A stretch of 64,000 nt of DNA from Bradymonadales bacterium (GTDB lineage: Bacteria; Myxococcota_A; Bradymonadia; JAFGEP01), in the NCBI GenBank assembly GCA_016931535.1, contig JAFGEP010000110.1, forward strand, positions 12,459 through 76,458. Direction: 5' to 3'. Each line of letters begins with the position of its first letter. The first letter of the stretch is position 1. The position numbers and the translations under genes were made by a program. Under the pieces are notes generated by a model. That model searched no databases and was not told the origin of the DNA. It was given only the letters and a program-made list of their open reading frames with translations. This document shows, one piece after another, positions 48,943-50,022 of this stretch.

Positions 48943-50022
48943 ATGCAGGTTCTGAATCATCGCGTTCGAGGGGCTTTCGGCAGTACAGTGCTTGCCTTCC
49001 TGCTCGCACTCTCTACCTCGGCCTCGGCTCAAGACTTCGGACCGCTCAATCCGCCTCAGGTCATCCCCTACGACGGGGTCCTCGAGCTGCACGGGCTGGG
49101 CGTGTCCGGTATCGTCAACATGCGTTTCACCCTGGACGATGTTCCTGCGGTGGACCGCGAGACGGGCTTTCTCTGGCAGGACGTATACGAGGTGGCGGTC
49201 ACCGCCGGCCGCTTCAGCGTCCTTCTGGGAAGCCACGAAACCATGCCGCTGCCCGCAGAGGTCTTCGAGGTCGACGAGCTCTACCTGGTGGTCGACATCG
49301 ACGTGGACCAGACCGAGGTCGTGGAGTGGCTCGGCCTGACCAACGCCCAGCGGATCGTCCCGGTCCCCTATGCGTACCGGACGGCCGAGAGCCGGGACTT
49401 CGTGATCCATGGCGAGGCGGTCAGCGAGGTGGATGACGGCGCTGGCGGAATCGACTACTTCTACATGGTGCCCCGGGGCGCCATCGTCATGTGGTCCGGG
49501 GCTCTGACAGACATCTCCGACGGCTGGGCGCTGTGTGACGGGTCCAACGGGACTCCCGACCTGAGGGACCGGTTCATCGTCGGTGCGGCGCCAGCGGCCG
49601 ATCCGGGCGCGACCGGAGGGGCCATCAGCCACTCGCACATCGTGGATCCCCACACACACGCCATCGGTGAGCACACCCACCCCATGCCCCATACGCATAC
49701 CCTGAGCCATACCCATGATGTCGATATTCCGCCAGCCTGGGTCGGCTACGTTCCCAACTACGATCCCGAAGGCCAGAACGGTTGGGTAGGCTCTGGCAGC
49801 GACACCAGTCCTCATGCCGCCGGTGTCTGGCACAGCCATGAGTACAATCCACCAAACACCACCTCCACAGAGGCCTCGAGCACCACCACCTCGTCGCCTT
49901 CAGTTGACTCGACCGATCTCCCGTCGGACGTCGACACGGACGTTCCGGACGACCCGGTCGGCACCGACACCATCGACCACCGGCCGCCCTACTTTGCGCT
50001 GGCCTTCATCATGAGACTGTAG
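48943..50022 (+). CDS. Signal-peptide-bearing phage tail fibre/collar-like protein
   Basis: SPI ending ASA; VPRGAIVMWSG..DGWALCDGSNGTPDLRDRFIVGA collar motif; repeated HxH; terminal PPYFALAFIMRL. Confidence 0.82.
   Translation: MQVLNHRVRGAFGSTVLAFLLALSTSASAQDFGPLNPPQVIPYDGVLELHGLGVSGIVNMRFTLDDVPAVDRETGFLWQDVYEVAVTAGRFSVLLGSHETMPLPAEVFEVDELYLVVDIDVDQTEVVEWLGLTNAQRIVPVPYAYRTAESRDFVIHGEAVSEVDDGAGGIDYFYMVPRGAIVMWSGALTDISDGWALCDGSNGTPDLRDRFIVGAAPAADPGATGGAISHSHIVDPHTHAIGEHTHPMPHTHTLSHTHDVDIPPAWVGYVPNYDPEGQNGWVGSGSDTSPHAAGVWHSHEYNPPNTTSTEASSTTTSSPSVDSTDLPSDVDTDVPDDPVGTDTIDHRPPYFALAFIMRL

Follow-up and report, generated by a model that had tools for sequence, protein, structure and literature searches.

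The 64,000-nucleotide stretch analysed here (the window: positions 12,459 to 76,458 of contig JAFGEP010000110.1, assembly GCA_016931535.1, from a Bradymonadales bacterium of the Myxococcota_A) carries a gene for an exported, fibre-like protein with a phage-type tip, which lies amid genes resembling those of toxin complex (Tc) injectors. The fibre gene (48943..50022, + strand) is a genuine gene that starts with ATG and encodes 359 amino acids (aa). Its GC content at third codon positions (GC3), 0.80, is akin to that of the neighbouring genes and fits a coding sequence, and an antisense open reading frame overlapping it shows the inverted third-position GC pattern typical of a shadow frame. A Shine-Dalgarno-like GGGAG can be read at 48930..48934 (+ strand), 8 nt 5' of the ATG; the stop codon of the upstream gene, which codes for a Cys-rich lipoprotein, is located at 48916-48918, 24 nt from the fibre ATG and 12 nt from the GGGAG. 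Residues 1-29 (48943..49029, + strand) are predicted to constitute a Sec signal peptide of the signal peptidase I (SPase I) type, given Arg7 and Arg9, the hydrophobic core TVLAFLLAL, the A27-S-A29 ahead of Q30, and a helix spanning residues 4-29 in the AlphaFold2 (AF2) model; cleavage is predicted at ASA|QD, after Ala29, and a lipobox Cys is absent from the signal region as read. The protein is then organized in two modules, an N-terminal domain (N-domain, aa 35-154) and a C-terminal domain (aa 175-359), connected by a short linker (aa 155-174; 49405..49464, + strand) that is modelled with a predicted local distance difference test (pLDDT) score below 50 and that stands where, by sequence comparison, relatives carry a long beta-helix-like shaft.

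The C-terminal domain (49465..50019, + strand), which ends in RPPYFALAFIMRL, is by sequence a clear homolog of phage tail-collar fibre tips, although it stays under Pfam's own threshold (Collar, PF07484; 18.3 bits, with a cut-off of 24). It matches PHROG 1800, 'tail collar fiber protein', over aa 175-359 (E=3.7e-18), the PDB entry 9qgo, 'Tail fiber protein', over aa 163-359 (E=1.4e-9), the Bizionia argentinensis C24 structure 6ov6 (E=9e-7) and 9nxk, and each of these three deposited entries contains three chains. The tip also matches 52 phage records annotated as tail fibre, and a fold search of BFVD returned proteins named 'Phage tail collar domain'. The tail-collar motif, MWSGALTDISDGWALCDGSNGTPDLRDRF, occupies aa 183-211; in an alignment of 61 full-length homologs W184 through F211, G225, G226, H237, H239 and P348 are invariant, Y350, L353, I356 and M357 are at least 90% conserved, and the final strand, PPYxxLxFIMKL, is nearly invariant. 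The AF2 monomer model has a pLDDT below 50 across the tip region, a poor result of the kind expected of an intertwined oligomer. Between the last HxH motif and the terminal strand lies a low-complexity insert of 45 residues, recognized by its Ser/Thr/Asp/Pro-rich composition (aa 300-345; 49840..49977, + strand), which most homologs do not have; it is likewise modelled with a pLDDT below 50 and is probably a flexible loop.

Five stacked HxH motifs follow the collar motif at aa 230-258 (49630..49716, + strand), with spacings of 7, 7, 6 and 6 residues: HSH at aa 230 (nt 49630) and HTH at aa 237, 244, 250 and 256 (nt 49651, 49672, 49690 and 49708). A sixth, again HSH, occurs at aa 297-299 (49831..49839, + strand). 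Six such motifs were reached in none of 10,000 residue shuffles of the protein, the shuffle mean being 0.84. By analogy with T4 gp37 (PMC11705849), the stack is a candidate series of His6 metal sites on a three-fold axis. The signal peptide, tail-collar motif and HxH stack listed in a preliminary description of this DNA were all found, the HxH motifs at exactly the nucleotide positions given there.

The N-domain (49045..49404, + strand), delimited from the AF2 model and phmmer searches, is a candidate docking or anchor module. The AF2 monomer model shows a confident beta-sandwich, with pLDDT of 85-95 over aa 40-120; the domain belongs to no family in Pfam, NCBIfam or PHROGs, and a tblastn search with a typical N-domain in 50,697 phage records and genomes gave no match. 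When the fibre model was used for a fold search of the PDB, the neighbours of this domain were generic Ig-like or macroglobulin-like sandwiches (best E=3e-3), and such model-based resemblances are not informative on its partner. With the N-domain alone as query, phmmer retrieved 421 cluster representatives at E<=1e-3 among 1.84 billion; in nearly all of the 150 homologs listed the domain covers approximately residues 30-160 directly after a signal peptide, its start falling in most of them at about aa 25-60, in proteins of 120-540 aa. Proteins at the same operon position in relatives share 27-49% identity with the N-domain. A protein search aimed at the Bdellovibrio mosaic adhesive trimer (MAT) fibres and scored on the N-domain of a relative returned only 11 close relatives. 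One N-domain homolog, P0383, ends in a Peptidase_S74 chaperone (E=3e-15), and another, P0010, has a motif that resembles the MAT capping loop.

The fibre gene is the third of four closely spaced + strand genes, separated by gaps of 5, 24 and 58 nt. The first (39284..45652) encodes a 2122-aa lipoprotein with Cys-rich repeats and a C-terminal core that is TcA-like according to AF2 and Foldseek; the second (45658..48918) encodes a 1086-aa Cys-rich lipoprotein (Cys1086) that is syntenic in Myxococcota relatives, and the fourth (50081..50908) a 275-aa Cys-rich lipoprotein (Cys275). Convergent to them, on the - strand (50952..57134), lies the gene of a 2060-aa TcB-TcC fusion (BC), in which Pfam recognizes SpvB, an FG-GAP propeller, TcdB_toxin_midN and RHS repeats. 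A promoter/terminator scan placed the only promoter-like site upstream of the first gene and found no + strand terminators between the genes, but the scan performs no better than chance and lends the operon only weak support. At the sequence level the 2122-aa protein has no match in Pfam, NCBIfam or PDB sequences. Its last 922 residues (aa 1201-2122) were modelled by AF2 from 35 homologs with a pLDDT of 76, and the model displays a helical shell, a helical hairpin of 87 + 113 residues with a low-confidence tip, and a beta-rich end. In the PDB, the top 18 Foldseek matches of this core belong without exception to TcA proteins (E between 2e-10 and 3e-4), including TcdA1, XptA1/2, TcdA4, TcaA-TcaB and YenTcA; the TM-scores are low owing to a different orientation of the long helices in the monomer model, and the fold matches justify the label 'Tc-like system'. 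Homologs of the 2122-aa protein bear Myxococcota names (Vulgatibacter, Haliangium, Polyangia, Sandaracinaceae).

The flanking genes encode a Ser/Thr kinase, a VKOR-DsbA fusion, an aminopeptidase P, an SLT transglycosylase, a hemerythrin and an N6 methylase. No phage structural gene was found in the flanks of the Tc-like locus within more than 20 kb of the fibre, which bears out the earlier statement that phage genes are absent nearby. That statement had accompanied the view of the protein as a domesticated phage tail fibre, which stands for the C-terminal half, homologous to phage fibre tips, and not for the N-domain, which has no phage match. A prophage tail-fibre remnant devoid of any present cellular function would also account for a C-terminal half that matches phage tail fibres; yet a signal peptide, host-like GC3, an intact reading frame, an N-domain foreign to phages, the phage-free surroundings and a conserved operon position all speak against a relic, which we regard as highly improbable and have rejected on the grounds of the conserved, non-phage context and the signal peptide.

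The conservation of this arrangement was followed by comparing the regions of relatives with five window proteins. Matches to the fibre were present in 11 of 40 relatives, mostly over the N-domain only. An N-domain gene lies within the same cluster in nine Myxococcota loci, with a C-terminal tip that is usually unrelated. In one relative (G002) the genes for the A-like (that is, TcA-like) protein, Cys1086, the N-domain protein, Cys275 and BC are all on one strand; the order A-like, Cys1086, N-domain protein is repeated in four others (G006, G018, G022 and G025) and partly in a fifth (G014). Three tandem N-domain genes occur in G022, which has another at a second locus near another BC gene, and in G030 the fibre gene is found between two BC genes. 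Loci found through the fibre itself are biased by that ascertainment; two metagenomic loci, however, were ascertained through the A-like protein and are unbiased regarding the fibre, and both contain a fibre gene: L121, with BC, Cys275, A, Cys1086 and three N-domain genes, and L122, with an N-domain gene, A, Cys1086 and BC. In L121, the closest metagenomic relative, eCIS_core (PF13699) and Barstar-like genes (1-1197) are also present near the BC gene.

Similar pairings were found outside the Myxococcota. A distant full-length homolog of the fibre, P0113, from a JGI metagenome (locus L002), is followed by a 955-aa protein and then by a 1869-aa BC fusion. The 955-aa family aligns with the window's TcA-like core in BLASTP (E=3e-7) and in hhalign (probability 99.3%, E=2e-20, 686 columns), and on these alignments the partners of about 950 aa in other phyla are homologs of that core. 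Eighty genome loci were then collected by collar-motif patterns and classed by the presence of an N-domain in the match, with a neighbour radius of 10 kb. A BC or A-like gene was present within that distance in 15 of 27 N-domain loci and in none of 49 collar-only loci (Fisher p=6e-9, a value that overstates the case, the loci not being phylogenetically independent, and that is indicative only, which weakens the reading favoured below). The BC genes of the positive loci, which come from Desulfobacterota, Nitrospirota, Methylococcales, Omnitrophota, Verrucomicrobiota and an unclassified uncultured bacterium, are always downstream of the fibre gene and on the same strand. This shows that the Tc-like context tracks the N-domain and not the phage-like tip. 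In the Omnitrophota, SpvB forms the C-terminus of a separate upstream protein, and the fibre gene separates this protein from the remainder of BC (L058 6769-9456, L063 6423-9827, L041 7222-9900, L052 1366-3237 and L070 4962-6125). The preliminary description had stated that a lack of linkage to the locus elsewhere would refute its proposal of a targeting module; the linkage does hold elsewhere, in all Myxococcota loci examined and in the positive N-domain loci of the other phyla. The same figures bear on the idea of a secreted, lectin-like bacteriocin or toxin of the MdpB/tail-collar class, acting independently of the Tc-like proteins. Tail-collar proteins are indeed widespread in bacteria outside phages, with more than 2600 homologs, some of them named 'microcystin-dependent protein', and the Bizionia C24 structure 6ov6 is one example; but the fibre possesses no toxin domain, no immunity-like gene is adjacent, and the linkage follows the N-domain instead of the collar domain, which leaves such a role very unlikely.

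Several further proteins were noted at these loci. No A-like protein was detectable in the Omnitrophota split-BC loci, and the proteins flanking the fibre gene there, considered as hidden A-like candidates, were negative in hhalign (probability at most 1.3%), the upstream one carrying the SpvB part. A conserved protein family of 450-580 aa, with 53-75% mutual identity and not A-like by hhalign, is encoded between the fibre and BC genes in Nitrospirota (L032 11685-13034, L033 6713-8449 and L035 11590-13080) and Desulfobacterota (L043 10906-12285); the Nitrospirota-type proteins at this position were also rejected as hidden A-like proteins by hhalign (probability at most 1.3%). Directly downstream of three other fibre genes, proteins of 2479-2874 aa (L079 5954-13393, L073 11900-20515 and L099 9923-18547) align with the A-like profile over its pore hairpin (E=4e-9, 4e-5 and 1e-3), and they may represent full-size TcA-like proteins in Desulfuromonas, a rumen metagenome-assembled genome and Verrucomicrobiota. 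In the window, a Ser/Thr protein kinase gene (36682-38766, - strand; Pkinase E=2.6e-46) stands directly upstream of, and divergent from, the Tc-like operon, and at L002 a kinase-like gene (7732-9777), with a weak Pkinase match, directly precedes the fibre gene; these adjacencies may reflect a regulatory link. The VKOR-thioredoxin/DsbA fusion, a disulfide-forming enzyme (34779-36209, + strand), is encoded about 3 kb upstream of the three very Cys-rich exported lipoproteins.

The fate of the tip was compared among 25 Myxococcota-type proteins (300 pairs). The N-domains could be aligned in 293 pairs (E<1e-5, median identity 34%) and the regions after them in only 20-26, a distal hypervariability for which the preliminary description had suggested looking. 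The window's tip matches none of the 24 other Myxococcota-type proteins at E<1e-3, and the four closest N-domains, 47-49% identical, bear unrelated Cys-rich tips. Most relatives have beta-helix-like repeats followed by a Cys-containing knob; G030 and G006 have a shorter HxH-type tip. Judged from these alignments, the window protein is a chimera of a Myxococcota-type N-domain and a collar/HxH tip that other phyla pair with 'NYQG'-type N-domains. As far as sequence comparison can tell, such exchange is what a receptor-binding protein should show, and it speaks against an assembly role of the housekeeping kind. The latter has been considered in the form of an assembly, export or stabilizing factor for the Tc-like proteins, for instance one that helps them cross or attach to the outer membrane, with no part in target recognition. 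The tight synteny with BC and A-like genes that bear Sec or lipoprotein signals would suit it. A helper of conserved partners should nevertheless be conserved itself, whereas here the C-terminal two thirds are swapped for unrelated folds between close relatives, tandem paralogs differ in their tips, and the window's tip is homologous to phage receptor-binding fibre tips; an assembly role accordingly appears unlikely.

Target recognition is the probable task of the fibre, within an exported kind of Tc-like injector that has not been described before. More precisely, and with moderate confidence, it can be seen as a trimeric fibre with swappable tips that serves a Sec-exported Tc-like system in targeting or adhesion. 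The following course of events is proposed. The protein would be exported by Sec, with its signal peptide cleaved after Ala29, as predicted from the sequence. The N-domain may then dock the fibre to the lipid-anchored TcA-like/BC assembly, or to the producer's surface beside it, and the tip would fold into an intertwined trimer, presumably stabilized by metal ions held in stacked HxH pairs on the three-fold axis. Binding of the tip to a surface structure of the target cell would allow the TcA-like channel and the BC cocoon to act in contact. Specificity would diversify by replacement of the tip on a constant N-domain and by tandem paralogs, as the comparative data suggest. Export and tip exchange are drawn from sequence and comparison, whereas docking, the trimer, metal binding and target binding are inferred.

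Several observations weigh against this targeting role. If the fibre is a trimer, its symmetry would not match that of a pentameric TcA-like assembly carrying it. The 9qgo alignment has no histidines opposite the HxH stretch, which indicates that a metal stack is not universal in the collar domain. Moreover, in 12 of the 27 N-domain loci no Tc-like gene was seen inside the 10-kb radius; one homolog (at L004) is found among housekeeping genes, and another, P0043 (at L006), in a non-Tc context, in a tandem array beside a 1603-aa protein with a C39-type peptidase domain, so that the N-domain is not exclusive to Tc-like systems. At L006 (4426-10816), six genes of 270-370 aa stand in tandem ahead of the gene of the 1603-aa protein (Peptidase_C39_2); P0043 comes last among them, and the other five may be paralogous fibres.

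The loci lacking Tc-like genes, the one at L004 included, are also what would be expected under the main rival explanation, a free-standing surface adhesin of the MAT type whose N-domain anchors to a general envelope component and whose adjacency to Tc-like genes merely reflects co-regulation in a competition or predation island. The Peptidase_S74 domain of P0383 and the MAT-like capping-loop motif of P0010 point in the same direction. In all Myxococcota loci examined, however, the gene is inside an operon amid Tc-like cluster genes; in Omnitrophota it separates the halves of a split BC, and the contrast between N-domain and collar-only loci, across at least five phyla, would be hard to obtain from loose co-regulation. 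A free-standing adhesin is hence considered doubtful, and the other rivals also fit the data less well than a targeting fibre of the Tc-like system.

If the fibre does aim this system, that would account for the ability of environmental and predatory bacteria to turn Tc-like cocoons on a variety of targets. Receptor-binding tips of phage type would then have a second widespread use beyond phages and tailocins, and there would be a concrete candidate for the binding partner of the conserved N-domain in MAT-like fibres. Across the related clusters of Myxococcota, Desulfobacterota, Nitrospirota, Methylococcales, Omnitrophota and Verrucomicrobiota, every component has an export signal, and a separate fibre with a replaceable tip travels along with the toxin genes. 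Given the comparative evidence, cultivable myxobacteria with homologous loci would allow the idea to be tested directly. A bolder and quite speculative version is that the N-domain is a universal docking adaptor by which, in at least six phyla, interchangeable receptor-binding tips are plugged onto surface-anchored Tc-like injectors exported by Sec; the tips would in that case comprise, just as tentatively, tail-collar/HxH, beta-helix plus Cys-knob and S74-matured fibres. Were it true, it would reveal a modular aiming system of a toxin-delivery machine that has not yet been described.

Compared with known systems, the fibre shares with phage collar tips (PF07484, PHROG 1800, 9qgo, T4 gp12) the motif GxIxxWSG...P.GWxLCDGxNGTPDLRxRF, the GG...PxHxH with invariant histidines, and the C-terminal PPYxxLxFIMKL strand. 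It differs from them in having a signal peptide and a non-phage N-domain in place of a baseplate-attachment domain, in being encoded in a Tc-like operon devoid of phage genes, and in its 45-aa Ser/Thr/Asp-rich insert. The repeated HxH motifs recall the T4 gp37 tip and R-type pyocin fibres. The coordination of iron by HxH motifs in T4 gp37 is established, as is the presence of similar motifs in other fibres, and in trimers their repeats give stacked octahedral His6 metal sites along the axis (PMC11705849, PMC6116203). Unlike in gp37, five motifs are packed into 29 residues of the window fibre; gp37 is absent from the PDB and PHROG matches, with no sequence homology to its needle detected. PHROG 4591, 'short tail fiber protein', is the one match of T4 type (E=6e-4), and it covers no more than the collar motif.

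Pfam BC domains, the TcA fold found by Foldseek and the conserved linkage place the fibre gene together with those of a TcA-like and a TcB-TcC protein, as in a Tc complex. In classical Tc toxins, cells are recognized by domains built into TcA, for example in TcdA1, and the chitinases Chi1 and Chi2 decorate YenTc. Classical Tc toxins have no Sec or lipoprotein signals and are released by lysis (PMC10847048). The window fibre resembles TcA receptor-binding domains and YenTc chitinases in concept, as a binding or decorating module added to a TcA-BC injector; it differs from them as a separate, fibre-type and presumably trimeric protein, in a system that bears Sec or lipoprotein signals throughout, and it matches no known Tc subunit or accessory (TcA receptor-binding domains, chitinases) in Pfam, NCBIfam, or PDB sequence or fold searches. 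Zhang, Aravind et al. (2012, PMC3482391) described the export class of TcdB/TcaC-class polymorphic toxins, defined by a signal peptide with SpvB, a beta-propeller and RHS, and listed 'Tail-fiber' repeats among the associated repeats, within the toxin polypeptides; the conservation in the cluster of a separate N-domain/collar fibre gene, as seen here, is not described in that paper. A literature search likewise found no paper joining 'tail collar' with Tc toxin, RHS or SpvB, or describing a pairing of a fibre with Rhs/Tc-like proteins.

The closest parallel in architecture is provided by the MAT fibres of Bdellovibrio bacteriovorus, in all 21 of which the signal peptide is followed by a common domain of about 130 aa (PMC10769870). 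In the window fibre, too, a constant beta-rich domain comes after the signal peptide, here of about 120 aa and alike in size, position and fold class, and as in the MATs the C-terminal tips on the N-domain are interchangeable; the N-domain homolog P0383 carries S74 as do the S74-type MATs. The earlier likening to exported fibres of predatory bacteria is therefore apt at the level of architecture. MATs are larger, however, with roughly 600-1150 aa and a long beta-helical trimeric shaft with capping loops, whereas the window fibre, with its 359 aa and a linker of about 20 aa, is almost shaftless, its tip is a tail-collar/HxH domain, and its gene lies inside a Tc-like cluster. The partner to which the MAT N-domain binds on the predator was left for further study (Caulton et al. 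2024, PMC10769870); if the N-domain described here is the same domain and also proves to be a docking adaptor, the class of partner left open by the MAT work would thereby be identified.

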